Shown: in pieces, positions 862 to 42,509 of the stretch
How the letters are laid out: every line of letters begins with the position of its first letter
Position numbering within the stretch: the stretch's first letter is position 1
Virus record (IMG/VR): IMGVR_UViG_3300044641_004147
Coordinates: 1-64,000 of that record
Length of the DNA stretch: 64,000 nt
From: a virus
Reading direction: 5' to 3' (one strand)
The notes under the pieces: model-generated
The model's input: the letters and a program-made list of their open reading frames with translations, nothing else
What the model was told of the DNA's origin: nothing
The model's database searches: none
Position numbers and translations under genes: made by a program

Positions 862-867
862 TAAATA
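862..867 (+). promoter_or_regulatory. T4-like late promoter core (TAAATA) upstream of portal
   Basis: Matches core of T4 late consensus TATAAATA; the same hexamer recurs in most larger intergenic gaps of the window. Confidence 0.65.
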
Positions 868-874
868 GTAAACT

Positions 875-892
875 ATGAGTACTAAACCATGA
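875..892 (+). CDS. Putative leaderless mini-ORF MSTKP, ATGA-overlapping the portal start
   Basis: ATG AGT ACT AAA CCA TGA; ATG lies 7 nt after TAAATA; TGA overlaps portal ATG at 889; portal lacks a clear Shine-Dalgarno. Confidence 0.4.
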   Translation: MSTKP

Positions 893-2592
893 GTTGGAAA
901 AAATATTTTAGGACAGCTAACCCATCTGGCGTAGCCAGTCCCGTTGGCAGCACCAGTAACAACGGTCAGCCGGCATACCGCAACTACCAAAGCAACTTGC
1001 CTGAAATTTATCTAGGGCATCCTAATCGTACAGAAAGATATAACCAGTACGAGCAAATGGACATGGACAGTGAAGTCAATGCCGCATTGGATATTCTTGC
1101 TGAATTTAGCACACAGCCGGATAAAGAAACGCAAATGCCGTTTATGGTCCACTATAAGGATAAGCCAACGGATAGCGAAATTAAAATTGTCAAAGAACAG
1201 CTACAGCAGTGGGTAGCATTAAACGAATTTCATAAGCGCATATTCAAAGTTATGCGTAATACTTTAAAATACGGTGACCAGGTTTTTATTCGCGACCCAG
1301 AAAACTTTAAATTGTACTGGGTTGAAATGAGCAAGGTTGTAAAGTGTATTGTCAATGAAGCCGATGGCAAAAAGCCCGAGCAGTATGTAATCAAAGACTT
1401 ACAACCAAACTTTGAAAATCTAACAGCTACGGCCGTGACTACCACAGACAGTTATGCAAATCACCCACAGGTTGGTGGAGCCAGCGGTAGTTATGTACAG
1501 CCCGGGTCTCCATACTCTGGCGGCAGTAGATTTAGCCATACTCAGAACGAAAGCGTTATCAACGCCGAACACATTGTACATTTAAGTTTAACCGAAGGTT
1601 TAGATTTGTTCTGGCCGTTTGGCAACAGTGTATTAGAAAATGTATTCAAAGTATTCAAGCAAAAAGAATTGCTAGAAGATGCTATTATTATCTATCGTGT
1701 GCAGCGAGCACCAGAACGCAGAATCTTTAAAATTGATGTAGGTAACATGCCAGCACACATGGCCATGGCTTTTGTGGAGCGTATCAAGAACGAAATTGCA
1801 CAGCGCCGCATTCCTACACAGACCGGTGGCGGCACTAATATGATGGATGCCACTTATAACCCACTGAGCACCAACGAAGACTTTTTCTTTCCTGTGACCG
1901 CAGACGGTCGCGGAAGTAGTGTTGACACACTGCAAGGTGGTAGCAATCTAGGTGAGATCACAGACTTAAAGTTTTTTACTAATAAACTGTTCCGTGGTCT
2001 GCGTATTCCTAGCAGTTACCTGCCCACAGGTATGGATGATGGTTCACAGGCAGTGTCAGATGGTCGTGTTGGTACAGCACTAATTCAAGAATGGCGCTTT
2101 AACCAGTACTGCCTGCGCTTACAGCGTATGGTAGTAGACAAGCTAGATCAAGAATTTAAGATGTTCATGCGCTGGCGCGGTATTAACATTGATGGGCAGT
2201 TATTTGATCTACAGTTTAACGAGCCGCAAAACTTTGCTAACTATCGTCAAGCTGAGATCGACGGTGCTAGAATTGGTACATTTACACAGCTAGAAGCATT
2301 CCCTTACTTTAGTAAGCGTTTCCTAATGCAACGATACTTAGGTATGACTGAGCAGGAAATGAGTGAAAACGAGCGTATGTGGATGGAAGAAAAAGGCGAA
2401 TCTGAAGAAGCACCTGCAGAAGATGTGGGCCTGCGTAGTGTAGGTGTAACACCGGGCGGCTTAGATGCTGACCTAGCTTCTGCAGAGATGCCGGCACCGG
2501 AAGGTGGTGAGATGGGAGCCGAAGCTCCTCCGGCGGGCCCCGAAGGCGGTGCCCCTGGAGTCCCGGCACCAGCGGCCGCACCAGCCGTTTAA
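889..2592 (+). CDS. gp20: Portal vertex protein (T4 gp20-like)
   Basis: Motifs LLEDAIIIYRVQRAPERRIFKIDVGNMP, EDFFFP..GRGSSVDTLQGG.NLGEI.DL.FF..KLFRGLRIP; position upstream of protease/scaffold/capsid. Confidence 0.95.
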   Translation: MSWKKYFRTANPSGVASPVGSTSNNGQPAYRNYQSNLPEIYLGHPNRTERYNQYEQMDMDSEVNAALDILAEFSTQPDKETQMPFMVHYKDKPTDSEIKIVKEQLQQWVALNEFHKRIFKVMRNTLKYGDQVFIRDPENFKLYWVEMSKVVKCIVNEADGKKPEQYVIKDLQPNFENLTATAVTTTDSYANHPQVGGASGSYVQPGSPYSGGSRFSHTQNESVINAEHIVHLSLTEGLDLFWPFGNSVLENVFKVFKQKELLEDAIIIYRVQRAPERRIFKIDVGNMPAHMAMAFVERIKNEIAQRRIPTQTGGGTNMMDATYNPLSTNEDFFFPVTADGRGSSVDTLQGGSNLGEITDLKFFTNKLFRGLRIPSSYLPTGMDDGSQAVSDGRVGTALIQEWRFNQYCLRLQRMVVDKLDQEFKMFMRWRGINIDGQLFDLQFNEPQNFANYRQAEIDGARIGTFTQLEAFPYFSKRFLMQRYLGMTEQEMSENERMWMEEKGESEEAPAEDVGLRSVGVTPGGLDADLASAEMPAPEGGEMGAEAPPAGPEGGAPGVPAPAAAPAV

Positions 2593-2605
2593 TTACCGTT
2601 TGGAT

Positions 2606-2611
2606 TAAATA
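2606..2611 (+). promoter_or_regulatory. Late promoter core TAAATA; probably gives a leaderless mRNA for the 2618 ORF
   Basis: ATG 6 nt downstream, no SD. Confidence 0.6.
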
Positions 2612-2617
2612 ACATAT

Positions 2618-2845
2618 ATGTTTATAGCTGAACTTTTTGAGCCAACGCCCACTGGCTATCGTGACGAAAAAGACGACAATTCTGTACAGAAATTGTCTGA
2701 TGTGCGTAAGACTAGACTTAGTCTAGCACAGATTAACCGCTTACGAGTCATGAATGATGTTCGTAAATACGAGCACGAGAAAAAGTTAGGCAGTATCACA
2801 AAACAGTATAAACCGCCAGCAGAAGCCGCTGCTCCGGCGATGTAA
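2618..2845 (+). CDS. Small hypothetical head-module protein (75 aa)
   Basis: Clean ORF between portal and core genes; basic RKTRLSLAQINRLR motif. Confidence 0.75.
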   Translation: MFIAELFEPTPTGYRDEKDDNSVQKLSDVRKTRLSLAQINRLRVMNDVRKYEHEKKLGSITKQYKPPAEAAAPAM

Positions 2846-2873
2846 TTTCAAAAACACGCAAAAAAACACCATT

Positions 2874-2897
2874 ATAACGGTAATATTCCGTTATTTT
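2874..2897 (+). terminator. Weak intrinsic terminator-like hairpin, directly followed by late promoter TAAATA (2899-2904)
   Basis: ATAACGG-taatatt-CCGTTAT followed by T run. Confidence 0.4.
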
Positions 2898-2936
2898 GTA
2901 AATAATACACAGCGTTTATCATTTTAAGGAGTTCAC

Positions 2937-3830
2937 ATGAACAAGTATGAACAGCTAATTGAATATATTATCAATGAGCAAGAAGACAAAGCCCGCGATC
3001 TTTTCCACCAAATCGTTGTAGAAAAGAGCCGCGATATTTACGAATCCCTCATTGACGAAGAGGATTTTGATGAAGCCGCAGTTGGTGGTAATCAAGTTGA
3101 CAGCTTAGTCGATGAAATTGAAGCCGACGAGCAAGGCATGCAGGAAGCCGACGATGACCTAGGTATGGACGACATGGGCAGCGATGCCGACATGGGCGAC
3201 GACATGGGCGACATGGGCGGTGATGCAGATATGCCTGGAGATCTAGGCGGCGACATGGGCAGCGAAGGTGGTGTTGAAGGAAAAATTCAAGACCTAGAAG
3301 CTGCTCTAGACGAATTAAAAGCCGAATTTGACGCACTAATGGGCGGAGAAGAAGGTGACGATATGGGCGGCGACATGGATGACATGGGCGACGGCGAAGC
3401 CGAATTTGACATGGAAGAGCCAGCCGACGAAGGCATGGTTCGTGAGTATGTTGAAAAAGTAGGCAAAGATTGGCCCAAGGGCGAGTCCGAAGGCACAGCA
3501 GTAGGAGCCAGAGGCGAAACTACAGCTATTAACAAGCAAAGCATTGTAGCCGGCAAGAACAACATGGGTGGTACTGCTGGTAACATTGTTAAGGGTGGTA
3601 CAGAGCAAGCTGCCGATGGTAAGCCAACTCCAACACCGAGCAACCAGTACACCAAAGGCCGCGGCGATCTAAAAGGCGCTGGCAACTTTGAAAATGTACC
3701 TGGCGCTAAGACCAAAGGTTACACAACCAAAGCAACCAGCTACGAAAAGCAACACGGCAAAGAAGGTCAAACCACAGACGGTAAGATGGGTGTTGACACA
3801 AAGAGCCTAGTTGGTGGTAAAGTACGCTAA
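2937..3830 (+). CDS. Acidic prohead core/internal scaffolding protein (position of T4 gp67/gp68)
   Basis: Very D/E/M/G-rich; strong SD AAGGAG; lies between portal and protease. Confidence 0.65.
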   Translation: MNKYEQLIEYIINEQEDKARDLFHQIVVEKSRDIYESLIDEEDFDEAAVGGNQVDSLVDEIEADEQGMQEADDDLGMDDMGSDADMGDDMGDMGGDADMPGDLGGDMGSEGGVEGKIQDLEAALDELKAEFDALMGGEEGDDMGGDMDDMGDGEAEFDMEEPADEGMVREYVEKVGKDWPKGESEGTAVGARGETTAINKQSIVAGKNNMGGTAGNIVKGGTEQAADGKPTPTPSNQYTKGRGDLKGAGNFENVPGAKTKGYTTKATSYEKQHGKEGQTTDGKMGVDTKSLVGGKVR

Positions 3831-3843
3831 TTGGTAACCAGTA

Positions 3844-4482
3844 ATGGCACAGTATCTTAAAGAAAATCTTACTTTTGACCATGCCCGCATGGAAGTCATC
3901 ATGGAAGATGACGCTACGGGCAAAGGTAAGAACCTTTTCATGAAGGGTGTATTCATCGAAGGCGGAGTTCGCAATGCCAACGAGCGAGTATATCCTGTAA
4001 ACGAGATTGCTAAAGCCGTACAAACTATTAATGAACAAATCAAGGGTGGCTACAGCGTCTTAGGCGAAGTAGATCATCCTGATGATTTGAAAATTAACTT
4101 AGACCGCGTTAGCCACATGATTGAACAAATGTGGATGGACGGTCCAACCGGCCAAGGCAAGTTAAAGATTCTACCAACACCTATGGGTAAATTAGTTGAG
4201 ACTATGCTATCCAGTGGGGTTAAGTTAGGAGTGTCCAGTCGCGGTAGCGGAAACGTTAACGAAAGTAATGGACATGTTAGTGACTTTGAGATAGTCACTG
4301 TAGATGTTGTTGCACAACCCAGTGCGCCTCATGCGTATCCAACTCCGATTTACGAAGGGTTGATGAACATGCGGCACGGTCACCGGGCTCTAGAAATAGC
4401 CAAAGAGGCTCAGGAAAATCAAAAAGTGCAAAAGTATCTAAAAGAGCAAGTAACTCGCTTAATTAGAGACTTAAAATTATAA
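3844..4482 (+). CDS. gp21: Prohead core protease (T4 gp21-like)
   Basis: N.N.RVYP, LGEVDHP, KLKILPTPMG, LGVSSRGSG and D.VAQPSAP.A catalytic motifs. Confidence 0.95.
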   Translation: MAQYLKENLTFDHARMEVIMEDDATGKGKNLFMKGVFIEGGVRNANERVYPVNEIAKAVQTINEQIKGGYSVLGEVDHPDDLKINLDRVSHMIEQMWMDGPTGQGKLKILPTPMGKLVETMLSSGVKLGVSSRGSGNVNESNGHVSDFEIVTVDVVAQPSAPHAYPTPIYEGLMNMRHGHRALEIAKEAQENQKVQKYLKEQVTRLIRDLKL

Positions 4483-4494
4483 AGGGGAAAACCA

Positions 4495-5589
4495 ATGTTT
4501 GATGCTATCAAGCCATTATTGGATAGCGGCATCATTAACGAAGAAACTCGTAATGCCATTAACGAAGCCTGGGAAACCAAGTTAGTTGAGGCTCGCGAGC
4601 AAGTTCGTGCAGAACTTCGTGAGGAGTTTGCAGGCCGCTATGAACACGATAAAAAGGTAATGGTTGAGGCTTTAGATAAGATGGTAACAGAAAATCTTGC
4701 TGCTGAACTACAAGAGTTTGCCAGCGAGAAAAAGGCTGTTGTTGAAGATCGTGTGAAGATTCGTTCTCACATGATGGAAAGCGCCGGCCGTTTTAATGAA
4801 TTCCTGGTTAAGAAATTAGCCGAAGAAATGCAAGAGCTACGCAAGGATCGCAAGAATTATGCCGAGAACGTTGAGCGTTTAGAGCAATTTGTAATCCGTG
4901 CTCTTTCTGAAGAGATCAAGGAATTCTCACAAGACAAGCAGGCAGTAGTCGAAACTAAGGTTCGTCTAGTTGCCAATGCTAAGGACAAACTTGCTGAACT
5001 ACAACAGAAGTTCATCAAGCGCAGTTCTGTTCTTGTACAAGAAGCTGTTACTACCAAGCTAAAGTCGGAACTAACACAATTGAAAGAAGACATCCAATCT
5101 GCTCGCGAGAACATGTTTGGTCGTCGTATTTTTGAAGCGTTTGCCAGTGAGTTCGGTGTTACTCATCTTAATGAGAACAAAGAAATCCGCAAATTGCAAG
5201 CCAAACTGGAAGAGCAATCTGGTCTACTAGAATCTGCTCAGAAAGTTGTTGAGCAAAAGGAACAGATCGTAGAAAGCAAAGAACGCGAACTACGCATCAT
5301 CAAGGAATCAGCTGATCGCAAGGAAAAACTTGTTGAAATGTTGAAGCCATTGAATAAAGAGAAGGCCACAGTAATGCGTGAACTTCTTGAAAACGTACAG
5401 ACTGACAAACTACAGAGTGCGTTTGAAAAGTATCTACCTGCAGTCTTGAATAACAGTGTAGTTAAGAAAAGCGAAAAAGCAATTCTTAGCGAGAGCCGTG
5501 TTGAGATTACTGGAGATAAGTCTGCTAAATCCGCAGCTAAGGAAAATGACACCAATGTCATTGAACTAAAGCGTTTAGCAGGGCTATAA
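4495..5589 (+). CDS. gp22: Prohead core scaffold protein (T4 gp22-like)
   Basis: Coiled-coil, E/K-rich, GRRIFEAFASEF motif; located between protease and major capsid gene. Confidence 0.8.
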   Translation: MFDAIKPLLDSGIINEETRNAINEAWETKLVEAREQVRAELREEFAGRYEHDKKVMVEALDKMVTENLAAELQEFASEKKAVVEDRVKIRSHMMESAGRFNEFLVKKLAEEMQELRKDRKNYAENVERLEQFVIRALSEEIKEFSQDKQAVVETKVRLVANAKDKLAELQQKFIKRSSVLVQEAVTTKLKSELTQLKEDIQSARENMFGRRIFEAFASEFGVTHLNENKEIRKLQAKLEEQSGLLESAQKVVEQKEQIVESKERELRIIKESADRKEKLVEMLKPLNKEKATVMRELLENVQTDKLQSAFEKYLPAVLNNSVVKKSEKAILSESRVEITGDKSAKSAAKENDTNVIELKRLAGL

Positions 5590-5623
5590 AAAAAATAGTT
5601 TAACCTTAAAGGAAAGAAAAGAA

Positions 5624-6802
5624 ATGACACAAGAACTATTAGAAAGCCGTTGGGGCGAAACTAAAGATGCCCTGTTAGAAGGTCTACAAGGCTCTCGCCG
5701 TACCTCCATGGCTGTTGTTTTAGAGAACACACGCAAGTACCTTGCAGAAAATGCAACCGCTGGCGCTACACAAGCTGCTAACGTTGCTTCGCTTAACCGC
5801 GTAATTCTGCCAGTTATCCGTCGTGTAATGCCTACAGTTATCGCTAACGAAATCATTGGTGTTCAGCCAATGACTGGACCTGTTGCACAGATCCACACTC
5901 TACGTGTTCGTTATGCAGAAAGCATGACAGACAGCAGTGGTTATGCTACTAGCACAACCGCTGGTGACGAAGCACTAAGCCCATTCAAGATTGCTGTTGC
6001 TTACTCTGGTGATGCAGCCACTGGCCGCGCTGCTGGTACAAGCGCTCTTGAAGGCGTTCCTGGCCGCAAGATTAACGTTCAAATCGTTAAGCAAGTTGTT
6101 GAAGCCAAGACCCGTAAGATGAGTGCTCGTTGGACATTCGAAGCCGCTCAAGACGCACAAGCCATGCACGGTTTGGATGTCGAGGCTGAGATCATGGCCG
6201 CTCTAGCACAAGAAATCACAGTTGAAATTGATCAGGAAATCCTAGGCTCGTTACGTGCTCTAGCTGCTACTGAAGCCACTTTCAACCAAGCTACCGTATC
6301 TGGTACTGCTACATTCGTTGGTGACGAACACGCTGCTCTAGCTGTTCTAGTTAACCGTGTTGCTAACTTGATCGCTCAGCGTACACGCCGTGGTGCTGCC
6401 AACTGGGCCGTTGTAAGTCCAGCTGCTCTAACAGTACTACAGAGTGCTACAACATCTGCTTTTGCTCGTACCACAGAAGGTACTTTCGAAGCTCCTACCA
6501 ACACCAAGTTTGTTGGTACACTAAACGGCGCAATGCGTGTTTATGTTGACAGCTATGCTAGCGACAGCACACCTGTTCTAGTTGGTTATAAGGGTTCTAG
6601 CGAGGCTGATGCAGCCGCGTTCTACTGCCCATATATCCCTCTAATGAGCTCTGGCGTTGTTCTAGATCCAGCTACTTTCGAACCAGTAGTTGGTTTCATG
6701 ACTCGTTATGGTTACATTGAGTTAACCAACACAGCATCGTCTCTAGGTAACGCTGGTGACTATGTTGGCGAGATCGCTGTTCAAAACTTGAGCTTCCAGT
6801 AA
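5624..6802 (+). CDS. gp23: Major capsid protein (T4 gp23-like)
   Basis: RRVMPTVIANEIIGVQPMTGP, VEAKTRKMSARWTFEAAQD..AMHGLD.E.EI, AAFYCPYIPL, DP.TFEPVVGFMTRYG. Confidence 0.97.
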   Translation: MTQELLESRWGETKDALLEGLQGSRRTSMAVVLENTRKYLAENATAGATQAANVASLNRVILPVIRRVMPTVIANEIIGVQPMTGPVAQIHTLRVRYAESMTDSSGYATSTTAGDEALSPFKIAVAYSGDAATGRAAGTSALEGVPGRKINVQIVKQVVEAKTRKMSARWTFEAAQDAQAMHGLDVEAEIMAALAQEITVEIDQEILGSLRALAATEATFNQATVSGTATFVGDEHAALAVLVNRVANLIAQRTRRGAANWAVVSPAALTVLQSATTSAFARTTEGTFEAPTNTKFVGTLNGAMRVYVDSYASDSTPVLVGYKGSSEADAAAFYCPYIPLMSSGVVLDPATFEPVVGFMTRYGYIELTNTASSLGNAGDYVGEIAVQNLSFQ

Positions 6803-6840
6803 GCATTAGTTTATCTTACCACTTGGGATGGGAAGACACT

Positions 6841-6863
6841 AAAGGGCCGCAAGGCCCTTTTTT
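6841..6863 (+). terminator. Rho-independent terminator after capsid gene
   Basis: AAAGGGCC-GCAA-GGCCCTTT with T6 tract; GNRA tetraloop. Confidence 0.9.
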
Positions 6864-6871
6864 GTTGGCCA

Positions 6872-6877
6872 TAAGTA
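6872..6877 (+). promoter_or_regulatory. Variant late promoter (TAAGTA), 4 nt before the desaturase ATG
   Basis: One mismatch to TAAATA, just after the capsid terminator; no SD before 6882. Confidence 0.45.
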
Positions 6878-6881
6878 TTAT

Positions 6882-7586
6882 ATGATAGAAATAATTTACA
6901 CTCTAGTAGTTACACACATTACTATAATCTGCGTAACACTATTCTTGCACAGAGGGCAAGCACACAAAGGCATAGAATTTCATCCTATTGCTGGACATTT
7001 TATGCGTTTTTGGTTATGGTTGACTACAGGCATGGTTACCAAGCAATGGGTAGCAATTCATAGAAAACATCACAGACATAGCGACCAACCAGGCGATCCT
7101 CATACTCCTCATGTTTACGGTCTTTGGCGTGTGTTGTTTGGTGGCGCAGGGTTGTATCACGCAGCCAGTAAAGATACTGAAATGGTACAGCAATATGGTG
7201 TAGGCACACCCAACGACTGGGTAGAACAAAATGTTTATGCTAGACACAGTCGTATAGGTATTATGATCATGTTAGCCATTGATATTGCATTGTTTGGCTG
7301 GATTGGATTTGTTATTTGGGGGATTCAAATGATTTGGATTCCATTTTGGGCCGCTGGGGTGATTAACGGCCTAGCCCATTGGTGGGGATATCGTAATGGT
7401 GAAACTAAAGATAACAGTAGAAACATTAGTCCTTGGGGTATTATTATTGGTGGGGAATGCTTGCATAATAACCATCATTTGGATCCTGCTAACCCTAAAC
7501 TGAGTCGCCGCTGGTTTGAATTTGACATTGGTTGGATGTGGCTAACACTCTTAAGATTTTGCGGGCTGGCAAAACTTAGAACCTAA
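6882..7586 (+). CDS. Membrane-bound delta-9-type acyl-lipid/acyl-CoA desaturase (auxiliary metabolic gene)
   Basis: Three His boxes HRGQAH, HRKHH, HNNHH; DPHTP; GYRN; WFEFDIGW; hydrophobic segments. Confidence 0.93.
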   Translation: MIEIIYTLVVTHITIICVTLFLHRGQAHKGIEFHPIAGHFMRFWLWLTTGMVTKQWVAIHRKHHRHSDQPGDPHTPHVYGLWRVLFGGAGLYHAASKDTEMVQQYGVGTPNDWVEQNVYARHSRIGIMIMLAIDIALFGWIGFVIWGIQMIWIPFWAAGVINGLAHWWGYRNGETKDNSRNISPWGIIIGGECLHNNHHLDPANPKLSRRWFEFDIGWMWLTLLRFCGLAKLRT

Positions 7587-7664
7587 TAAATATATAGTTC
7601 ACTCAAAAGAGTTTATGCGGTACCCACCGCGTAGGCCTAGAACGCTAACCAAGGAGAAAAACAA
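7587..7664 (+). promoter_or_regulatory. Late promoter TAAATA (7587-7592) plus structured 5' leader and SD AAGGAG
   Basis: Stem GTTTATGCGGT/ACCGCGTAGGC (7611-7636) with ACCC loop. Confidence 0.55.
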
Positions 7665-8054
7665 ATGGGACGCCCTTTAAATAAAAGAAATTTTGGCGCA
7701 AATGCCGCCAGCAATCTTCGTGTTCGTTTTCACAACGGCACAGCCAGTGTTGATGGAGCAATTGTAAGCCAGCGCGGTAGCAAGAAGTTTAAATGTGTAG
7801 ACAGTGCTGGTACAACAGCCGTTTGCACATTAGTCAGCGTTGCTGATGGATCACTGGCCGCCGGCGAAATGAGCATTAAAGTAGCTAACGATGCTGGCAC
7901 AGTTTTATATGTAACCAAAATTACAGCTCGTAAAGTTACAGCCAGCGACGGTAACACCTACCCATGGAACTTCAGTGCAAGTACCAGTGACGCCGCTGTA
8001 CAAGTTGAAGAAGCTGGATCGGATGCTGTATTCACAGGCAATGTAGATCTGTAA
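7665..8054 (+). CDS. Putative virion structural protein (129 aa, MGRPLNK... N-terminus)
   Basis: Own promoter, strong SD and terminator suggest high expression; beta-rich. Confidence 0.7.
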   Translation: MGRPLNKRNFGANAASNLRVRFHNGTASVDGAIVSQRGSKKFKCVDSAGTTAVCTLVSVADGSLAAGEMSIKVANDAGTVLYVTKITARKVTASDGNTYPWNFSASTSDAAVQVEEAGSDAVFTGNVDL

Positions 8055-8070
8055 TTAACTACAGACAAAC

Positions 8071-8100
8071 AAAAATAGCCGCACTAGCGGCTATTTTTTT
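8071..8100 (+). terminator. Rho-independent terminator
   Basis: AAAAATAGCCGC-acta-GCGGCTATTTTT with T7 tract. Confidence 0.9.
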
Positions 8101-8141
8101 ATCCTTTAGTTTGACATAAATATGTTTAAATAGGAACTTAA

Positions 8142-8714: not shown

Positions 8715-8722
8715 GGTATACC

Positions 8723-9031: not shown

Positions 9032-9032
9032 C

Positions 9033-10301: not shown

Positions 10302-10334
10302 GTTTAGAGTTTTTCTAAGTTGATAAATAACATT

Positions 10335-10376
10335 ATGAGTTTACACAAAACACGCAGGCGCGAGGAGAATAATTAA
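10335..10376 (+). CDS. Putative leaderless mini-ORF MSLHKTRRREENN, TAATG-coupled to the 10376 gene
   Basis: ATG 5 nt after TAAATA (10324-10329); TAA at 10374-10376 overlaps the next ATG. Confidence 0.4.
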   Translation: MSLHKTRRREENN

Positions 10377-12370
10377 TGGCTATCCCAAATTTTTTCTCAG
10401 TTGAAAGAACAGGCTATACTAAGATTTCTGATCTTTTCACTGATGTAATGAAGGACATGATTGAAAACGGATTTACGCTAGTCAATGCTTCAAACGGTTT
10501 TCCAATGACTTCATGGAAGACTACAGTTGTAACTGGGGGCACCGGTCAAGCTGTAGGTAATAAATTATACATCAATGATGGTTCCAGACCAATCTATCAA
10601 GGCAGTCCCCGTCCTAGCCCATATGTAGAAGTTACCAAAGTATCTACCATTGGTAGTAGCTCGGGAGTAGTAACTGGATTATCTGAAGTCAAGGCTGATT
10701 ATGATTTTCCAATTTGGCAAACTCCGCCAACAAATCCAGTTAATTTGTATGCAACAGCATCTAGTACAACACCGCTGACTGTTACAGCGAACCTTGCTAA
10801 TACCGCAGTTACATATTCTTCTGTAGGATTCCCTGATAATGCACCAGTGTATTTTTCTTTTACACTAGAAGCTAGCGGCGATGTTGATCCGCTCAACGAA
10901 AGTCGCCCAGCACCAACACATCCATTTGTTGATGAAGTCAAGCGTCAGCCATGGCGTGTACAATTTGTAGTCGCTGACGAACAAAAAGTGTCAGGATCGA
11001 TTGCAACACCATTGCAGATGCGCTACGACGATGCTGCTGGCAAAGTTATTATCAGTAGAATTACCGACGACTTTGGAGTAGTTATTGACAATGTTGGAGC
11101 CATTGGGGCAGCACAGCCCGGTGGCATTTTCACAGACAGCGATTTAAACCAAGGTCTTTACAATAGAAAAATTCGAGTTGCACAAGAAGAAAAAACTTTT
11201 CCTTTGACTTATATTTTAAGTATCACAGACCGTGGTTTCTTCTTAGGAATTTATGAAGGCTCTTGGTCTACAATTCGTGCGGCTACTACAGTGAACAGTA
11301 ATTATTTTAACTGGGTTCTGTGCCAGCGCCCGGTTGACCGCGGTACCGGAGTTACACTAACTCGTGGCAAGGCTCCGGTGTTCCATATTAACAGCGTAAA
11401 CTACAAATACTACAAATCTGTAGTTCGCGAAGCAGATATTTTACACCCAACCAGTGGACCAAGTCCTACACCGGCTTCGGGCAATATTAATATTGCATCA
11501 TCCGCAGTGTCTGGCAATACTCCAAGTAGCTGGGTTGTCACTGGAACTCCAGATACTAGAACTGGAGAAGCTTCTCAATTCTTAGTAAATTTAGAGCCAG
11601 GTAGCACATTATATGACACTACTGGATATACCATTGGTACAGTTAAATCTATTGTCAATGATGCTAGTTTACTATTAACAAGCAAGCCCGGTAAGATTAT
11701 TACTAATCAAGACTTTTTCTATACACCCCCTAACATCTTAGCATTAAGAGTATTAGCAGATGTACACAGTCCTGATAGTCATGCAATTTTTAATGCAGCT
11801 GAACAAATTGCACTCACTGAGGATAAAACATATTTGTTAAGTTTCCCACACAACTTGACTACTCCTCGTTTCCGTTATACTGAAGAATTAGATATGGTTG
11901 GTATGACCAGTTCTGATGTTGTTATGGCTGGTCAGGACATTCAGTTCACTACCTACGGTGAGTGGGGCCCACGAACATATCGTGCGTTGCCGGCAAATGC
12001 CGCATTAAATACCGGACTAAGATTAGCAGTAATTTGGAAGCCAATGGGACCAAAATGGATTAGTCCAAACGAAGGTTCTCTAGGAGAGATATCAGCTGGT
12101 GACACTATTGATGTTGATTTTATCGCCGAAGAAGCACCAGTACCAGCTGGCGAAACACCAAGAGCAGATCCAACATTTGAAATCGTTCGCGGAAGCATAC
12201 CAAAAGGCCTAGTATTTTATACATCAGGCAAGGTCGCTGGCACAGTTGAACTGTCGGAGTACACAGAAGCAACAATGATTAAATTTACAGTGGCAGCTAA
12301 ACACATCGAAGAAGGTGTTCATGCAGGTTATGCTCTAAGAGATTTCTGGTTCACTTATGTTCCAGCTTAA
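10376..12370 (+). CDS. Virion structural protein, paralogue of 12389 ORF, with C-terminal Ig-like domain
   Basis: Shared motifs WVL.QRPVD, P.F..NSVN.K..K.VVRE.D, RF.Y..ELDM.G..SSDVV, RTY.AL; SD GAGGAG. Confidence 0.7.
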   Translation: MAIPNFFSVERTGYTKISDLFTDVMKDMIENGFTLVNASNGFPMTSWKTTVVTGGTGQAVGNKLYINDGSRPIYQGSPRPSPYVEVTKVSTIGSSSGVVTGLSEVKADYDFPIWQTPPTNPVNLYATASSTTPLTVTANLANTAVTYSSVGFPDNAPVYFSFTLEASGDVDPLNESRPAPTHPFVDEVKRQPWRVQFVVADEQKVSGSIATPLQMRYDDAAGKVIISRITDDFGVVIDNVGAIGAAQPGGIFTDSDLNQGLYNRKIRVAQEEKTFPLTYILSITDRGFFLGIYEGSWSTIRAATTVNSNYFNWVLCQRPVDRGTGVTLTRGKAPVFHINSVNYKYYKSVVREADILHPTSGPSPTPASGNINIASSAVSGNTPSSWVVTGTPDTRTGEASQFLVNLEPGSTLYDTTGYTIGTVKSIVNDASLLLTSKPGKIITNQDFFYTPPNILALRVLADVHSPDSHAIFNAAEQIALTEDKTYLLSFPHNLTTPRFRYTEELDMVGMTSSDVVMAGQDIQFTTYGEWGPRTYRALPANAALNTGLRLAVIWKPMGPKWISPNEGSLGEISAGDTIDVDFIAEEAPVPAGETPRADPTFEIVRGSIPKGLVFYTSGKVAGTVELSEYTEATMIKFTVAAKHIEEGVHAGYALRDFWFTYVPA

Positions 12371-33948: not shown

Positions 33949-33967
33949 ATATTAAAACGAGCATAAT

Positions 33968-34231: not shown

Positions 34232-34234
34232 AAC

Positions 34235-34591: not shown

Positions 34592-34602
34592 TTTAGTCTA
34601 AT

Positions 34603-37600
34603 ATGAGCAAAAGAAAATTAATTGGCAAATCAAGGTTACTTAATCCCTATGACAAAAGTGGTGTTTACACCACGGATGAAATAACCAACATTGAATTAGA
34701 AAATAAAAATCTATTACTAACAGGCGTAAAGCATCGCCGTCACGATGTCTACACTGAATTTACTGGTAATGTTGATCCTTACTACAATCATGTGGTCTGT
34801 CATATTCCAGGTGCAACCTACGACACCCATGTGCTTAAAGATCAGTCCGGTAACAACTTTGATGAATTTTTATACGCCAACGACTATAGAATTGAAGCAG
34901 GCATCAATGAGTCGGGTCCAAAAGAATATCACTCGATATATTTTTGGGATCAGGCATATCATGTAACAGATGCAGCCAGTTTGCGATTAGGAACAAATAA
35001 TTTTACCATTGAATTCTGGATGAAAACTGGACGAGCATTTGGCGCAGAATCGTACATCATGGGCAAAGGTTCCGGTGGCGGCCGCGCCAGTGGTGGCACC
35101 GGATGGGTAATCTATCTCACCTCAGGAAACCTAATAGGATTTTACGACGGCTTAGGAAATACTTCAACACAGAGCACCACAGCAATTACGCACGATACTT
35201 GGACGCACATTGCTATAGTGAGATCTGCTGGTGCAGTGACCATTTATCAAAATGGTGTTAGTGTGGGCACTGGCACTAGTTCGGGTAATTTTACAGATAC
35301 TGCAACCATGGTCATTGGCAGAGACAGAGACACTGGTGCTAATTATTATGGTGGGTACTTGTTTGATCTTCGTATTCGTACATCTGTAGTATATTCGGCT
35401 AATTTCACACCGCCCACAGATCTACTGGATATGAGCAATTCTATTCTTAGTATATCTGGTTCAGAACCATATCACCCTTATCACACAGGCATTCAACGAG
35501 AAGGTCGTACTGTCACTAACTGGGGCGGCTATAACAGCGTTAGAAAATATCCAGATCATCCGTTCATTGTTAAGTTTCCTAGACCCACTGGCAGCGGTAT
35601 GAGCTGTTCTGTTCGGGCAAACGACCGAGGGTACCAAATTGCAGACAGTAAACCTGGGCGAAGTTTACAATTTGGTACAGGAGCATTTACTATAGAGTGC
35701 TGGGTTTTCGTATCATATGCTGGAAGAGCCTCTCAATTTGGTATAGCAGGCAAAGGCACAGGTGATGCAGCCGCTGCTGGAGCCACTGGCTGGAGTTTTA
35801 TCTGTAACGGAAGTCAACTTCAATGGAGTGATGGCACCAGTGCTTTGGTAACTGGCACCAACGCAGTTTTAGGCGGCAGTGCTTGGAACCATGTGGCAGC
35901 AGTAAGAGAAGGCACCGGTACAAATCAGTTTAAGATGTATGTCAATGGTCAATTGGCCTATACTGGAACGCTGGCCTCTAACTATAATCAAACTAGTCCG
36001 CTAGTACTCTGTGCTAGTAGAAACCATCAATATCAACCGCAAGGTGTCAGATTCTTTGGGATGAAAATTAGTAATGTTGCCAGATACACTGCACCATTTA
36101 CTATTACACGATCTACTTTTTACGACACAGTGGCCACTAACGATGCTAACACCTTGCTTTATATGTTTGATACCAAAGACAAACGAGCAAGACCATTTAA
36201 GGCACAGTATATCAGCGACGGCTACGAACCGCTGTCGGCTAGAGCCAGAGGCACCACAGGGCAGCATAGACTAGGAAGCCGAGGATTGTACACTGGCAAT
36301 CACAGTGTTTCAAATATAGCTGGTGGCGCCAGTAGTACATTGTTTACATCCACTACGCAAGGAAGTTATAGCTTTGGCACCAGCGATTTCTCTATAGAAT
36401 TTTGGATATGTAATCAGTACGAATGGGAGCCTATTATGAATGCTGCTCCTAGATTTTTATTTGACTGTCGAGCTAACTTCAACGATGGTACTGGATTTGC
36501 AATGAGATATAATTTCAGAGCATTGCAGATTATAACCGGAGGTATGGTTATATTAGCTGACTCATCGGCCTATTTTCCACAGCGAGCATGGTCTCATATT
36601 TGTTTGCAAAGAACTGCGGGACAATTGGCATTGTATGTCAATGGAGAAAAAAGAGCAGAAACATTTTATGCCGGCACCATGGCAGCGGCCAGCAATAAAA
36701 TGTATTTTATGAACGGTGCCTTTAATGTACGCAACGATCAGCGTTGGTACGGATGGATGTCTGACATCAGAATTTTAAATGGCTCCGGAGCTTACAGTGT
36801 CGGAACTTCAAATCCGGAGCGTATTCGTGTTCCCACTCAGCCGCTAACGGCTATTACAAATACAGTTCTGTTAACAGCAGGACAACCAACACTGAGAGAT
36901 TATTCCAGTGTTGATAATCTTGTTTGGGCAGGTAATAGACCAGATGCAACTCATACTAGTTCTTGGGATGTTTATATCAGCGGGTTTGGACCTTATACCA
37001 GTCAAGATAAATCCTTAGGAATGACCACTGATTTTTGGGACGGTAGTTATTCTGGTGGTCACTCAGAGCCGGACTATAACACTGGCAATGACGCAATGAT
37101 AGAGATGACTTGGATGACTAGGTTAGCCAAACCTTGGACTTTAGAAACATGGTTCTATCAACCTCAAACCGATCCTAATGCCATTGCAACAGTACCGACT
37201 GCGGTATACACTGCAACGTCCAACAATGAAAACGGTTGGCAACTTATAACAAACTATGCTGCCGGAGCTAACAGCTACAATGATGTGTCATTTGTTTGGC
37301 GCTCACCGAGACTGGCCGCCGGAGCCAATGAGTTTTTGAACACTACTACCGGTAATGGAAATATACGTCCACACAGTTGGAACCATGTAGCAGTGGTCTA
37401 TGATCCTAGCAAAACTACTAAAGCTGCACTTTTTGTTAATGGAAAAAGAGTAGCCACACGGGCATCGTTTACACAAAGTTATTCATTGGCCTATACCTAT
37501 AGAATACAACACAGTGGATATCACGGCGCTGGTGATGTTAAAATAAGTGACATTGCCAGGTATGATGTTGATCAAACTACATATACCGTTCCGACTGTGG

Positions 37601-38409
37601 CGTCATGGACTAGAGATGCTAATACAGCGTATCTTCTACGCATAGACAATGGTCTATTAGACAGGTCGCAAAATATGACTTATATGCTCGATGGTCTAAT
37701 TAGACCCAGTTATCAGTACTCCAAGTGGGGTTCTGGTAGTATGGGCATGAATAATTTAAACAGCACTGCAAATTACGACAGAATTTATATGAACCCAACC
37801 GCTGGTGGTTGGGCCGAAAGAGTCTGGGACTACCGTTACGGAGACTATACTGTTGAAGGGTGGGCTCAGTGGAAAGATGCCACAGCCGGCGGAAAAGCTA
37901 CGCCTACTAGTGCCCCTGGAGCCTGCATGTACCATCAAGGTAATTATATATGGGTAGGTATTAATGCCAGCGGTAACTGGACTTTGCTGCACAGGGCCGG
38001 AGCAACTACTAACTTTACACCCACAATTATTAACTCAGTTGCAGTGGCCACTTCAACTGCTGGAACTTGGAATCACTGGGCCCTGGTGCGTAAGGATGGA
38101 GATTATCATTTATATGTTGATGGGCTGTTAGTAGCCAGGCATCTAGATGGAAACCATGGAACTTACACCAGCAATGGCCCTACATCGGATGCTCAAAGCA
38201 GTCATAATGATTTTTACAATGTCAATGATGCTCGTGTAGGCTACGAGTATAACGAGACTACCGGAACTTGGTGGTGTGGGCACTTAGAAGATTTTAGAAT
38301 GACTGCATTAGCAAGATATAGTCCGGGAGTAGTCAATGGAATATGGGCTATGTGTCATAATGGCACCAATATTTCAGCACTGCCAACTGGACCATTTCCT
38401 ATTAGGTAA
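34603..38409 (+). CDS. Multi-LamG/concanavalin-A-like lectin adhesin (about 5 domains)
   Basis: Repeated [FW]T[IVL]E.W ... W.H.A.V ... [YF]VNG ... [DE].RI motifs. Confidence 0.85.
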   Translation: MSKRKLIGKSRLLNPYDKSGVYTTDEITNIELENKNLLLTGVKHRRHDVYTEFTGNVDPYYNHVVCHIPGATYDTHVLKDQSGNNFDEFLYANDYRIEAGINESGPKEYHSIYFWDQAYHVTDAASLRLGTNNFTIEFWMKTGRAFGAESYIMGKGSGGGRASGGTGWVIYLTSGNLIGFYDGLGNTSTQSTTAITHDTWTHIAIVRSAGAVTIYQNGVSVGTGTSSGNFTDTATMVIGRDRDTGANYYGGYLFDLRIRTSVVYSANFTPPTDLLDMSNSILSISGSEPYHPYHTGIQREGRTVTNWGGYNSVRKYPDHPFIVKFPRPTGSGMSCSVRANDRGYQIADSKPGRSLQFGTGAFTIECWVFVSYAGRASQFGIAGKGTGDAAAAGATGWSFICNGSQLQWSDGTSALVTGTNAVLGGSAWNHVAAVREGTGTNQFKMYVNGQLAYTGTLASNYNQTSPLVLCASRNHQYQPQGVRFFGMKISNVARYTAPFTITRSTFYDTVATNDANTLLYMFDTKDKRARPFKAQYISDGYEPLSARARGTTGQHRLGSRGLYTGNHSVSNIAGGASSTLFTSTTQGSYSFGTSDFSIEFWICNQYEWEPIMNAAPRFLFDCRANFNDGTGFAMRYNFRALQIITGGMVILADSSAYFPQRAWSHICLQRTAGQLALYVNGEKRAETFYAGTMAAASNKMYFMNGAFNVRNDQRWYGWMSDIRILNGSGAYSVGTSNPERIRVPTQPLTAITNTVLLTAGQPTLRDYSSVDNLVWAGNRPDATHTSSWDVYISGFGPYTSQDKSLGMTTDFWDGSYSGGHSEPDYNTGNDAMIEMTWMTRLAKPWTLETWFYQPQTDPNAIATVPTAVYTATSNNENGWQLITNYAAGANSYNDVSFVWRSPRLAAGANEFLNTTTGNGNIRPHSWNHVAVVYDPSKTTKAALFVNGKRVATRASFTQSYSLAYTYRIQHSGYHGAGDVKISDIARYDVDQTTYTVPTVASWTRDANTAYLLRIDNGLLDRSQNMTYMLDGLIRPSYQYSKWGSGSMGMNNLNSTANYDRIYMNPTAGGWAERVWDYRYGDYTVEGWAQWKDATAGGKATPTSAPGACMYHQGNYIWVGINASGNWTLLHRAGATTNFTPTIINSVAVATSTAGTWNHWALVRKDGDYHLYVDGLLVARHLDGNHGTYTSNGPTSDAQSSHNDFYNVNDARVGYEYNETTGTWWCGHLEDFRMTALARYSPGVVNGIWAMCHNGTNISALPTGPFPIR

Positions 38410-38412
38410 CTT

Positions 38413-38643
38413 ATGCTAGATTTTCCCATTGAACCCAAAGACCTTGATGTGCATATATTTGAAACACAAAATTTTGTGTTCCATAGTAATGCCAATGCTT
38501 GGTGGCCTGAAGGCATAACTGAAGCTGTAAACACTGCAATTGATAGGAATTATGTTAATTACTATCTTTCTTCGGGCATATATGTGACCTTAGATAAAGC
38601 AGTTTTAGCAAATTATCAAGCACCACTACACCCTAGTAGTTAA
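38413..38643 (+). CDS. Small hypothetical protein carrying the FP..P N-terminal module
   Basis: N-terminus resembles those of the 33355, 58733 and 60122 proteins. Confidence 0.55.
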   Translation: MLDFPIEPKDLDVHIFETQNFVFHSNANAWWPEGITEAVNTAIDRNYVNYYLSSGIYVTLDKAVLANYQAPLHPSS

Positions 38644-38704
38644 CAACCCGTTACCAAAATCTCTCTGGGCTAAATACACTAACGCCTAAGGGAGATATGG
38701 AACT

Positions 38705-40663
38705 GTGGCAAATAAGAACTTTGTAGTTAAGAACGGCCTTACGGTCGGCAATTTAGACATCGTAGCAGATTCTGGTGACTTAACCACCAGCGGCAATGTC
38801 ACAGTCAATACACTCTACGCAGACACTCTGGTTAAAACCGGTGGCGGAACATTTACAGGATTTTCGGGCTCTGCAGGATCTGCAGGCTACACAGGTAGCT
38901 CAGGTAACCCGGGCGGCTACACTGGCAGTCGTGGCGACACTGGATTTACAGGCAGCACAGGCAATTTAGGCTACACTGGTAGTCAAGGTGCTGGTTTTGT
39001 AGGTAGCCAAGGTACTACAGGTTTTGTAGGCAGCAGTGGGCAATTTGGTTACACCGGCAGCGATGGTGCCACAGGTCCACAGGGCTACAGTGGTAGTCAG
39101 GGACAATCAGGCGCTACAGGCCCTACAGGTGTGGCCGGCGTTCCTGGAACTCAAGGCGCATCGGGCGTAACAGGTCCAACTGGTCCAACTGGTCCAACCG
39201 GAGCCACAGGTGCTCCAGGCCTGGGTATTAACATCAAGGGCTCAGTTGCTACAACAGGTAATTTACCCAGCACAGGCAATTTAAACAACGATTCCTATAT
39301 TGTACAAGCAGATGGACACATCTGGGTTTGGAGCGGGTCTGCTTGGTTTGATGCTGGTTTAATCTTAGGCCCAACGGGTGCCACAGGAGCCACAGGTGCT
39401 GTAGGAGCCACAGGAGCCACAGGGCCAATTGGTTTTACAGGTAGCTTTGGAGCCACAGGTGCCACAGGTGCCGTGGGCGCCACAGGTTTCACAGGATTCA
39501 TTGGTAGTCGCGGCCTGCAAGGCTTTGTGGGCAGTGTGGGTTTTGTGGGCAGTCAAGGCACAGGCTTTGTAGGTAGCCGAGGTACACTAGGATTCACAGG
39601 TAGCCAAGGCGCCGGATTTACTGGCAGTCGTGGCGAAAAAGGATTTACTGGCAGCGAAGGTAGTTTGGGTTACACTGGTAGCTCTGGCGCCACAGGACCT
39701 TCGGGTATCGCTGGCTTTTCTGGCAGTGTTGGAGCAGGTTATACAGGCAGTGAAGGAACAATAGGCTACACTGGTAGTATTGGTTACGCAGGTAGTTCTG
39801 GTGCAGGTTTTACAGGTAGTCAAGGCACCGAAGGACCATCTGGTCCGCAGGGTTTACAGGGCTTACAGGGCGTTGCTGGATTTGTAGGCAGTGTTGGCGG
39901 CCCTGGGCCATCTGGCCCATCTGGTCCAGCTGGTCCAGTTGGATACACTGGTAGTTCAGCTGAAGGCGCTGGAATAAATCCAAGTTTGGCCATTATTAAT
40001 GCCAACACCTGGACTTCGACTAGCACAACCACCGGAGCGTTACAGTTAGCCGGCGGCGCTGGCATACAGGGTAATGTTTATGTAGGCGAATCACTGTATG
40101 TTACTGGTAATATATTACCAACCAGCAATAACTTAGTAAACTTAGGTAGTCCTACACGCAGATTTAATACCCTATATGTGTCAGCTAACACCATTGACAT
40201 TGGTGGCGGCACTATTAGCCTGGATAATCTGGGTCAGTTTAACATCAAAGGTGTTCATGGTAATCTAGTCATTGGTGCAAATACAGTTAGCTTTCTGAGT
40301 AATGTAGCCAGCACTGGTTACGGCATCATGCCGCCTAATACAATTAATTTGTATCAAGCAGGTCCGTTAAAGATTATTAATGGCACTATGCGTTGGTATG
40401 CGCCATACAATTGTTTGGTAACCAAGGTCTATCCAAGAGTGGTCAGCAGTGCTGATGCAGCAGTGCATATTAGGTTGAAGAAAAATGACAATACATTAAT
40501 TACGCTGGTCATTGGCGCTAATCAATTTGATTCAGCACCATATATTGCCGGCATTAATATGTTGGCCGGAGACTATTTTACAGTAGATGTAATACAAATT
40601 GGCAGCAGTGCCAAGCCTGGTGCAGAATTGTATGTTCAGTTTCAGTACCAATTTGTGGTATAA
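38705..40663 (+). CDS. Collagen-like fibre protein (GTG start)
   Basis: NFVVKNGL N-terminus; long GFTGS/GATG/GPTG Gly-X-Y tracts; SD GGGAGA. Confidence 0.8.
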
Positions 40664-40673
40664 TAAATATAAA

Positions 40674-40688
40674 ATGTTGGGGATTTAA
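40674..40688 (+). CDS. Putative leaderless mini-ORF MLGI abutting the 40689 start
   Basis: ATG TTG GGG ATT TAA ATG; first ATG 4 nt after TAAATA (40664-40669). Confidence 0.4.
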   Translation: MLGI

Positions 40689-42509
40689 ATGGCTATTATT
40701 AAAGTAAATGGAACAAGTATGCAGACCTGTGCAGTCTTCGAAGACACACGGCCTACAGGTAACAGGTTTTATTTTTGGCAAGACGCACACAAGGAAACAA
40801 ACTTAGAATATGTACTAACTGGCTTATTGATTCACAATACTGCCGCTACTACTATTTCAGGGTATGGATTTCCTAGTTTTAGTCCAAATACCACTGATTG
40901 GCGTCATACTGGTATATTAATGCTAGGTGGCGAAGTTGTACATTGCAGTCATCAAATTACCACTAATAACGATCGCAGAAATAACTTAGATTTCACTATG
41001 TTAACCAGCATGGATCCTGCAAATCCTACTCGCAATCATAGATATGTCACAGACACAACCGGCAACAATGCTTTATTCAGTCAGTTCAACCATATGCAGG
41101 TTCCGGCCGCTGCCCCTAGTGTTACATACCAAACAAGATATAATGTAGTTGGCGAAATAGATTCTCAACCTCCAACTAAGGCTAGCTCAGTAAACTATTA
41201 TCAAAGTTGGGCAGTTTTCTGGAGACAGAGCACCGGTAACATGATTCAAATTACCAACAACTATAACAGTTCAAGTGATACTAACTGGCCAAACCATCTC
41301 TGCCCAGGTCGTATTCAAAGTGTATTAACTGGTCCTGGTACTACTACATTAACCTATGCTGCCCCGACTACTTATCAAAACGTTATGTTCCAGTTTTTAG
41401 GAATAGCCACAAACGGTCAGGCTATATTTTTAAACAACTCTCTGGATAACGATCACACGCAATTATTGATGCGTTATAATGATGTTGACAATACTATAAC
41501 AACATTGGCAACATTTAACGCAGCCGTGACCGCAGCCGGGACCAGTGCTGGTGGCAGTCGCGGAACAGCACATGGAAATACACTGACTAAATTTAGCAGT
41601 AAAACATTTACAGATCCTACCAGCGCCGGTAATACTGCATGGTACACACCATTTGTTGATAGCTCGGGTAACTTCCATCCGCACTTTTTCCAGTGGAATA
41701 GAACTGCTGATACATTTACTCGTAACAGTAATATCACAGTTAACTGGGGTGCTGGTACTAACCAAAGTACAAACTGGTTACCGGACACCCTGAGTGCAGC
41801 CAGCTCGTCGACTGTGCATATGATTCAGCGTTTCTGGTATAACGAAACATTTACAGTATCTGGCACCAGATACTTAACATTGATTCAATGTCACGGGTCC
41901 GGTGCAGTCTATGACAGTGAACCTAAATATAGAACATTTATAACTTTCAGCATTGATGCAGCTGATCCAAAGATCTTAAACTATCACAGTCGTGCAATTA
42001 TTCCTGTGACACCTAAGAATATTATCTGGCTCAATGACGATCGTACACAGATGGGTGTGTTTACCTGGAATAACTTCTACATCTATACATTTACAGCAGG
42101 CAGTGGCTGGAGTCAAACTGCCAACTTACCATTTAGATTCGAAGCAGTGGGCCGAGACCAACTTGGAAGAATCTGGGCCGTGGACGGTGGACAATACACT
42201 TTTGGCAGATTGCACTTGATTACACCAGCTGTGCCAACCACAGTGTCTGTGGTCATGGCTCAAAGCAATTATAATTATCAAGGTTCAGTGGTTAATACCA
42301 CTGCTACAGTAAATGCCTATGACCAATCTGGCAATAGAATAGCCGCAGTGGTTACACTGAAGATCGAAGGCAGTTCAATGCGTTTGGTCAGCGGCGGCAC
42401 AGAATACACAGAGCTAGCAGTGACTACATCTAACAGTGCAGATACCACTGTTAATATCAGAGTAGTTGCAGCCGGAACCAGCAACATTGTTGCTTCCGTT
42501 AACATTTAA
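40689..42509 (+). CDS. Putative receptor-binding/virion protein, paralogue of 42782 ORF
   Basis: Shares F.DPTSAGN.AWYTP..DSSG.FHP.FFQWNRT.DTFTRN and C-terminal Ig-like domain. Confidence 0.7.
   Translation: MAIIKVNGTSMQTCAVFEDTRPTGNRFYFWQDAHKETNLEYVLTGLLIHNTAATTISGYGFPSFSPNTTDWRHTGILMLGGEVVHCSHQITTNNDRRNNLDFTMLTSMDPANPTRNHRYVTDTTGNNALFSQFNHMQVPAAAPSVTYQTRYNVVGEIDSQPPTKASSVNYYQSWAVFWRQSTGNMIQITNNYNSSSDTNWPNHLCPGRIQSVLTGPGTTTLTYAAPTTYQNVMFQFLGIATNGQAIFLNNSLDNDHTQLLMRYNDVDNTITTLATFNAAVTAAGTSAGGSRGTAHGNTLTKFSSKTFTDPTSAGNTAWYTPFVDSSGNFHPHFFQWNRTADTFTRNSNITVNWGAGTNQSTNWLPDTLSAASSSTVHMIQRFWYNETFTVSGTRYLTLIQCHGSGAVYDSEPKYRTFITFSIDAADPKILNYHSRAIIPVTPKNIIWLNDDRTQMGVFTWNNFYIYTFTAGSGWSQTANLPFRFEAVGRDQLGRIWAVDGGQYTFGRLHLITPAVPTTVSVVMAQSNYNYQGSVVNTTATVNAYDQSGNRIAAVVTLKIEGSSMRLVSGGTEYTELAVTTSNSADTTVNIRVVAAGTSNIVASVNI

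Follow-up and report, generated by a model that had tools for sequence, protein, structure and literature searches.

How do the late genes of an uncultured T4-like giant phage bring ribosomes to their start codons? The question is raised by the first 64 kb of a 93,346-nucleotide (nt) IMG/VR contig (record IMGVR_UViG_3300044641_004147), which was judged to be ∼26% of a complete genome; we refer to these 64,000 nt as the window. There, the hexamer TAAATA recurs between genes, at some sites only a few nucleotides before an ATG that opens either a real gene or a mini-open reading frame (mini-ORF) ending at the next gene. A sequence-only reading of the window had proposed a dedicated system in which leaderless mini-ORFs, expressed from late promoters, load ribosomes and pass them to structural genes, tuning stoichiometry or bypassing the Shine-Dalgarno (SD) sequence. 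Here, we compared the window with its relatives and favor, with moderate confidence, another explanation: TAAATA promoters would give rise to two kinds of late message, one leaderless and one with a short leader, and the mini-ORFs would mostly be by-products of that layout.

Two spacings of the TAAATA box

We surveyed the distance from TAAATA to gene starts in nine records (eight whole related records and the present contig, 1.11 Mb), writing spacers as N plus the number of nucleotides between box and ATG. The distances were bimodal among the 253 intergenic boxes that had a gene on the same strand no more than 100 nt away. The first mode, N4 to N7, comprised 48 genes, 26 of them at N5; the second extended from N18 to N34, with 25 genes at N21, and N8 to N17 was almost empty. 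The control motif TTTATA had a flat spacer profile. In the window, where intergenic DNA makes up ∼3% of the sequence and ∼97% is coding, the forward strand carries 15 intergenic copies versus 14 inside coding sequences, which bears out the earlier count of about 15. The core is often preceded by GG or A.

The late box of T4, TATAAATA, lies at −13 to −6 (PMC1524935). Because of that position, an N5 spacer puts the A of the ATG at the predicted +1, and the sharp N5 mode is consistent with the T4 start position, 6 nt past the last A of the box. Homologues of T4 gp55 were found in all eight relatives' records (E values of 1e-7 to 8e-6). Given an A/T-rich box that is enriched between genes and stands at fixed distances before virion genes, we infer by analogy with T4 that TAAATA forms the core of T4-type late promoters from which both leaderless and short-leader messages are made.

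The excess of boxes followed by a nearby ATG is due to real leaderless genes, as predicted from their spacing. In the contig, the motif-plus-ATG class numbers 10 versus 1 in a reversed-pattern control; across the nine records, TAAATA-N4-7-ATG occurs 116 times versus 68 in reversed-pattern controls, and N5 alone 54 times versus 14. The class as a whole thus exceeds its reversed-pattern control, and the mini-ORF subclass, as described below, is near its compositional expectation, a comparison of the kind that the sequence-only reading had called for. Separately, there is a small peak of TATAAT 6 nt upstream of gene ATGs (7 genes in the nine records), with one N5 case at contig position 77733, a hint that leaderless starts extend to some sigma-70-type early genes.

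The same spacing could be read without any transcription start site (TSS): TAAATA-N5-ATG would be an A/T-rich translation enhancer or gene-junction signal within longer transcripts, and nothing would be leaderless. Genes of the contig are nearly all on the + strand and junctions with gaps of ≤1 base are common; with genes so tightly packed and co-oriented, read-through transcripts must exist, and in some relatives the TAA stop of the portal gene even forms part of the TAAATA before the next gene. However, the box also stands at a second fixed distance, N18 to N34, before SD-bearing genes, as fits a promoter; terminator hairpins precede it, as at the tail-tube gene; it matches the T4 late box in a group whose records hold gp55-like sigma genes; and the empty N8 to N17 interval is as expected if the 5′ end falls at the AUG or an SD distance away. 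We consider a box without a start site very improbable.

Genes that begin at the box

The 75-residue gene that follows the portal gene (Table 1) lacks an SD and has TAAATA-N4-8-ATG in 77 of 78 relatives, with N5 in 52. Among these relatives its product is conserved from the first residues (M-x-x-x-E/D-L/F-F/Y), marking the ATG as a genuine coding start that is both SD free and leader free, the sequence pattern of a leaderless mRNA. The product is homologous to PA5oct gp150, a virion protein by mass spectrometry (BLASTP, 1e-11). This gene probably has a conserved leaderless start.

All five sites at which an ATG had been noted 4 to 7 nt past the motif are present (N7, N6, N4, N5, and N4, in order along the window). 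The third box, before the desaturase gene, is ATAAGTA, with one mismatch, and not TAAATA. Its promoter status is uncertain because TAAGTA-N4/5-ATG precedes only 3 genes in the nine records. Of the two real genes that the sequence-only reading had taken to start without an SD, the 75-residue gene therefore stands on conservation, and the desaturase gene is only possibly leaderless. Directly 3′ of the capsid gene is a terminator-like element, a G+C-rich hairpin with a T run behind it (window positions 6843 to 6866), and the desaturase gene starts 16 nt further on.

Beyond the window, N5 boxes precede real genes at contig positions 85481, 87995, and 92410 (− strand), and the gene at 87995 is also at N5 in two related records, G026 and G020. 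The gene at 85481 encodes the tail tube (phrog_4542; box in the contig 85470 to 85483 region). Its counterparts in G026 (162078) and G020 (188167) have the same box and terminator but a 21- to 23-nt leader with an SD, so genes switch between the two message types. The leaderless late-gene layout is thus robust at the level of sequence, the leaderless status itself being predicted from the box-to-ATG spacing.

TABLE 1 Positions of the boxes, short reading frames, and genes discussed (window numbering, except where the contig is named)
Feature	Position	Strand	Remarks
TAAATA late-promoter core (putative)	862-867	+	21 nt upstream of portal ATG
Mini-ORF, MSTKP then stop	875-892	+	ATG at N7; TGA 890-892 overlaps portal ATG 889 (ATGA); lineage specific
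Portal protein, T4 gp20 type	889-2592	+	Pfam Portal_T4, 9.5e-101; phrog_213
TAAATA late-promoter core (putative)	2606-2611	+	N6 before ATG 2618
75-residue gene, predicted leaderless	2618-2845	+	phrog_13986; position of T4 gene 67
Prohead protease	3844-4482		T4-type head gene
Major capsid protein	5624-6802		Gp23, 7e-97
TAAGTA, one-mismatch box within ATAAGTA	6872-6877	+	N4 before desaturase ATG 6882
Fatty-acid desaturase gene, no SD	6882-7586	+	Pfam FA_desaturase, 9.7e-16
TAAATA late-promoter core (putative)	10324-10329	+	N5 before upstream ATG 10335
13-codon 5′-terminal upstream ORF (predicted), MSLHKTRRREENN then stop	10335-10376	+	TAA overlaps ATG 10376 (TAATG); reads through SD
SD, GAGGAG	10363-10368	+	7 nt before ATG 10376
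664-residue sheath-like structural protein	10376-12370	+	phrog_12249
Sheath-like paralogue, 478 residues	12389-13825		phrog_12249; follows the gene at 10376
TAAATA	40664-40669	+	Directly after stop of fiber gene 38705-40663
Mini-ORF, MLGI then stop	40674-40688	+	ATG at N4; TAA abuts ATG 40689
606-residue fiber-like protein	40689-42509	+	phrog_20698, phrog_22549; weak C-terminal matches
Main gp18-like sheath, 1,069 residues	contig 81511-84720		phrog_10581, 1e-197

Short reading frames between box and gene

In the short-leader kind of message, the gene ATG would lie 18 to 34 nt past the box, usually with an SD. The flank downstream of the box is A/T rich, and for that reason an ATG sometimes arises at N4 to N7 of such a promoter; a chance ATG there would create a 5′-terminal upstream ORF (uORF). 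Persisting copies would be short frames whose stop lies on or slightly beyond the main start, a position in which they would be harmless or hand the ribosome on. The three mini-ORFs of the window do end exactly at the next start, as had been noticed from the sequence: stop and start overlap or abut as ATGA (889 to 892), TAATG (10374 to 10378), and TAA-ATG (40686 to 40691).

As a class, mini-ORFs are not above chance in frequency. At 196 leadered promoter sites in the nine records, an upstream ATG (uATG) at N4 to N7 was seen 18 times versus 17.3 expected from position-specific base composition, and the window by itself has 3 versus 0.94 expected (Poisson P = 0.07). Deeper in the leaders, ATG is rarer than expected (1.0% per position versus 1.85%). 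What departs from expectation is where the frames end: 13 of the 18 uORFs stop within −3 to +16 of the main ATG versus 30% for pseudo-ORFs at the same offsets (P = 3e-4), and exact stop/start junctions (abutting, TAATG, or ATGA) occur in 5 of 18 versus a 9.9% null (P = 0.03). Six of the 18 belong to a single set of homologous sites; when homologues are collapsed (n = 13), 8 end within that interval (P = 0.03) and 4 have exact junctions (P = 0.036), 3 of these 4 being from the contig that prompted the idea. uORFs that begin at offsets other than N4 to N7 end like the null. The picture is one of ordinary uATG frequency with some filtering of the positions at which a uORF is permitted to end.

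A role for uORF translation in melting a hairpin over the SD was considered and rejected, as leaders fold no better than shuffled sequences (folding z of −0.25 to +2.4). Since no structure masks the starts, nothing in the sequence indicates that downstream translation depends on upstream translation.

The portal gene offers the most sequences for comparison, with 80 relatives gathered via the portal protein (71 to 83% identity). TAAATA lies 18 to 24 nt before the portal ATG in 72 of the 80 (mode of 21, the distance in the window) and within 90 nt in 77. The leader is short (∼15 nt), with a weak GAG(A) element. In the nearest relatives, L003 and L005, the window's leader aligns to a GTG where the window has the ATG of MSTKP, and in other relatives the homologous position is ATT or other bases or has no related codon. 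Of 78 sequences, only the window and L044 (N4, MGIYQ then stop, ATGA overlap) have the overlap geometry, and the L044 frame arose independently. Moreover, only 4 of 67 unique portal leaders contain a uATG, versus 19.9 ± 3.7 in shuffles (0 of 2,000 as low), while GTG and TTG are at expectation. The depletion shows that selection keeps AUG out of portal leaders, contrary to the prediction from a loading device. The uORFs of the four exceptions all have their stops between −3 and +14, as would fit tolerance of geometries that do no harm.

We also considered and rejected the idea that MSTKP is left over from an N-terminal extension of the portal protein (L016 starts MATKPQ…), because the 21-nt leader matches L003 and L005 base for base and the box-to-ATG distance is modal. 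Such extensions, of 9 to 11 residues (e.g., MATKPQGPTGGSWK), are present in portal relatives L004, L006, L016, L021, L027, and L055. MSTKP, one G-to-A change away from L003 and L005, would be a by-product of the promoter layout, and probably so would MLGI.

The MLGI site argues nothing beyond chance. The 25-nt spacer before the fiber-like gene includes GGGGA, a possible weak SD; no relatives of the fiber-like protein were found in viral contigs, and five related records gave only a weak C-terminal match. Elsewhere in the window (55965 to 56077), a 28-codon ORF (55989 to 56075) starts 18 nt after a TAAATA with its own SD, GAGGA, and ends in TAATG on the start of an 881-residue fiber gene; it is a small coupled upstream gene and not leaderless.

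The sheath-like gene

The remaining mini-ORF, before the sheath-like gene, differs in its conservation. As had been noted earlier, that gene also has a good SD. We compared 18 distinct relative leaders of the gene, all of which conserve the block GATAAATAAYWTTAT. A subclade consisting of the window and L083, L108, L096, L097, L098, L113, and L099 (relatives at 39 to 65% protein identity) has TAAATA-N5-ATG and an open uORF in 8 of 8 sequences. These uORFs are 10 to 18 codons long, run through the SD, and end at −3, +1, +10, or +16 of the gene ATG, and their peptides are unrelated except in the codons overlapping the SD. An AUG at the predicted 5′ end followed by a separate, SD-led gene, as at 10335, is thus conserved in the subclade, and the expectation that geometry rather than peptide would be conserved holds here, although not at the portal gene.

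Could this pattern also be an accident? All three mini-ORFs, including that at 10335, might be neutral, with the subclade reflecting one inherited G and a chance lack of stops. The flank TAAATAAYWTTAT is conserved with G, A, or T as the next base, so that the ATG state could be a single event; only about five independent lineages are covered, and in this composition a frame stays open for 10 to 13 codons by chance in ∼0.3 to 0.5 of cases per lineage. Yet the three frames do not behave alike. Frame 0 is open in 8 of 8 sequences with the ATG, whereas in distant relatives, in which the promoter flank is retained and N5 is occupied by ATA or ATT, it meets a stop >10 nt before the gene ATG in 5 of 8. 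In 7 of 8 subclade sequences, frame +2 runs into a stop partway along the leader; likewise, in 7 of 8, the TGA of ATGA immediately terminates frame +1. The leaders also differ widely in sequence and in length (35, 36, or 41 nt), so the openness of the frame was maintained through many substitutions and length changes. Neutrality at all three sites seems unlikely to us.

Evidence that the sheath-like uORF is maintained is therefore moderate. We lean slightly towards its being translated and affecting the downstream start, and a role as a coupling or standby 5′-uORF for the SD-led start is plausible. The uORF is absent in outgroups of the subclade. Among other relatives, L127 and L128 have an ATG at N7 that opens a 14-codon uORF ending in TAATG, and L132, a close sister of L127, has lost the uORF by a 1-nt deletion. 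The protein itself has only distant partial matches in cultured phages, which are of no use for the leader.

Leaders without an N5 ATG (L102, L103, and L127/L128) often open with a short perfect hairpin, e.g., GAATACT-TT-AGTATTC, which may be a 5′ stabilizer replacing ribosome binding at a 5′ AUG. The sheath-like gene is also one of two adjacent paralogues near the head genes that are present besides a separate gp18-type sheath. That main sheath gene is preceded by TAAATA-N6-ATGTAA (contig 81475 to 81513), a start-stop pair at the predicted 5′ end, and then by the SD AAGGAAA; the main sheath of G026 (158052) has TAAATA-N6-ATG TTC TTA TAA, encoding MFL, and G020 is without a uATG there.

Loading system or by-product?

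The dedicated loading system must be weighed against these observations. That the three window mini-ORFs all finish at the next start, and that stops of N4 to N7 uORFs fall close to the main start in a larger share of cases than those of same-offset pseudo-ORFs, is what the system would predict, but uATGs are no more frequent than composition provides and, outside the originating genome, exact junctions are found in 1 of 8 nonhomologous uORFs versus a null of 10%. At the sheath-like gene, the geometry and not the peptide is kept, and the L127/L128 frame also ends in TAATG; against this, L132 lost its uORF altogether, and the main sheath uATG yields only a methionine and a stop here and MFL in G026, both stopping before the SD. 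At the portal gene, where conservation of the overlap upstream of gp20 had been suggested as a check, the rarity of the geometry and the avoidance of AUG refute the proposal. Finally, abundant virion genes use a plain SD leader (capsid) or are leaderless themselves (tail tube). Although a standby or loading role has been proposed for the E. coli ptrB 5′-uAUG, we judge a dedicated system of this kind improbable: it is unsupported in general, and coupling or loading is plausible at the sheath-like gene alone.

A broader version would make the 5′-terminal AUG from a late promoter a general ribosome entry in this freshwater giant-phage clade, serving leaderless virion genes directly and some SD-led genes through throw-away uORFs, with the sheath-like uORF a selected loading or coupling device. 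We hold this to be unlikely as well.

The explanation that we favor, two kinds of late message from TAAATA promoters, would run as follows. T4-type late promoters with the core TAAATA would be read by a gp55-like sigma factor. Where the box lies 5 nt (range of 4 to 7) before the ATG, the predicted +1 is the A of the AUG and the message would be leaderless; in the contig, this would apply to the 75-residue prohead-type protein, the tail tube, the genes at 87995 and 92410 (− strand), and perhaps the desaturase. Elsewhere the message would carry a short leader, in which uORFs arise by chance, and the one before the sheath-like gene, kept open across its subclade, would probably be translated and either couple to the SD-led start or serve as its standby.

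Several points weigh against this explanation. No gp55 homologue was found in the present contig, a 93-kb fragment with ∼26% of the genome, and its forward strand has a single copy of the full T4 octamer, TATAAATA. Promoter use and TSSs rest on analogy with T4, and the host's capacity to translate leaderless mRNA is assumed. The tests of uORF ends are small and post hoc, with ancestry only partly corrected. Lastly, PA5oct and Vibrio phage 2.275.O, the cultured relatives of the head module, do not share the leaderless layout.

Comparison with known systems

The contig (G+C content of 44.6%) has T4-type head genes (gp20, gp21, and gp23) and an AAGGAG-type SD before most genes. Its capsid protein shares 66 to 67% identity with the capsid proteins of three giant phages, Vibrio 2.275.O, Pseudomonas PA5oct, and Serratia BF, while megablast of 12 kb against cultured phages gave no nucleotide-level match. 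The genomes of PA5oct and 2.275.O have no excess of the TAAATA-N4-7-ATG pattern, and in both the gene after the portal has an SD or a coupled start and is uninformative for the present layout. For PA5oct, the published description reports only sigma-70-type promoters.

Late transcription in T4 depends on the gp55 sigma factor, the gp33 coactivator, and the gp45 clamp. As in T4, the putative promoters described here have an A/T-rich, −10-type box without a −35 element before virion genes. Unlike in T4, the core consists of six bases, TAAATA, with the full octamer nearly absent, and about 1 in 5 promoter-proximal genes has its ATG at the predicted +1; the T4 genome has no excess of TAAATA-N4-7-ATG (16 versus 20 in the control). 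The benchmark leaderless mRNA, that of lambda cI from PRM (PMC4965119), likewise has a 5′-terminal AUG without an SD; it is, however, a single regulatory gene with a sigma-70 promoter, whereas here a whole class of late genes, including the tail tube, is predicted to start in this way.

For the mini-ORFs, the nearest likeness is with E. coli mRNAs that carry a 5′-uAUG ahead of an SD-led gene. 70S ribosomes bind these uAUGs and often translate from them, and downstream expression rises or falls when they are mutated; the ptrB uAUG has been suggested to act as a standby or ribosome-loading site (Beck, Fleming and Janssen 2016, PMC4965119). Here, too, a predicted 5′-end AUG is followed by a normal SD-led gene, but the candidate uAUG follows a putative phage late promoter, and only 1 of the 3 window uORFs is conserved. 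Leaderless short ORFs at operon heads are common in mycobacteria (Shell et al. 2015, PMC4633059), and, as there, a mini-ORF would be the first cistron of a polycistronic message. In mycobacterial polycysteine attenuators, the Cys-run content of the peptide is the signal (bioRxiv 10.1101/834739), whereas here conservation extends to the reading-frame geometry and not to the peptides. Termination-reinitiation at ATGA or TAATG resembles all three sites in the junction, where the upstream stop codon overlaps the next start or directly adjoins it; the differences are that the upstream cistron has 4 to 13 codons and a predicted leaderless start and that 2 of the 3 downstream genes have their own SD-like element. 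The mini-ORF mechanism of the sequence-only reading is thus of a known kind. T4-type late promoters fused to start codons are less familiar, and our literature search found no description of them.

Significance

If the favored explanation is true, a large group of uncultured T4-like giant phages would express abundant virion proteins without an SD, unlike T4, and their hosts must translate leaderless mRNA well, which would be a clue to host range. In annotation, the box can be used to fix start codons exactly and to mark ATGs that are promoter proximal. The mini-ORF idea shrinks to the 5′-uORF of the sheath-like gene, which would be a phage example of the E. coli phenomenon.

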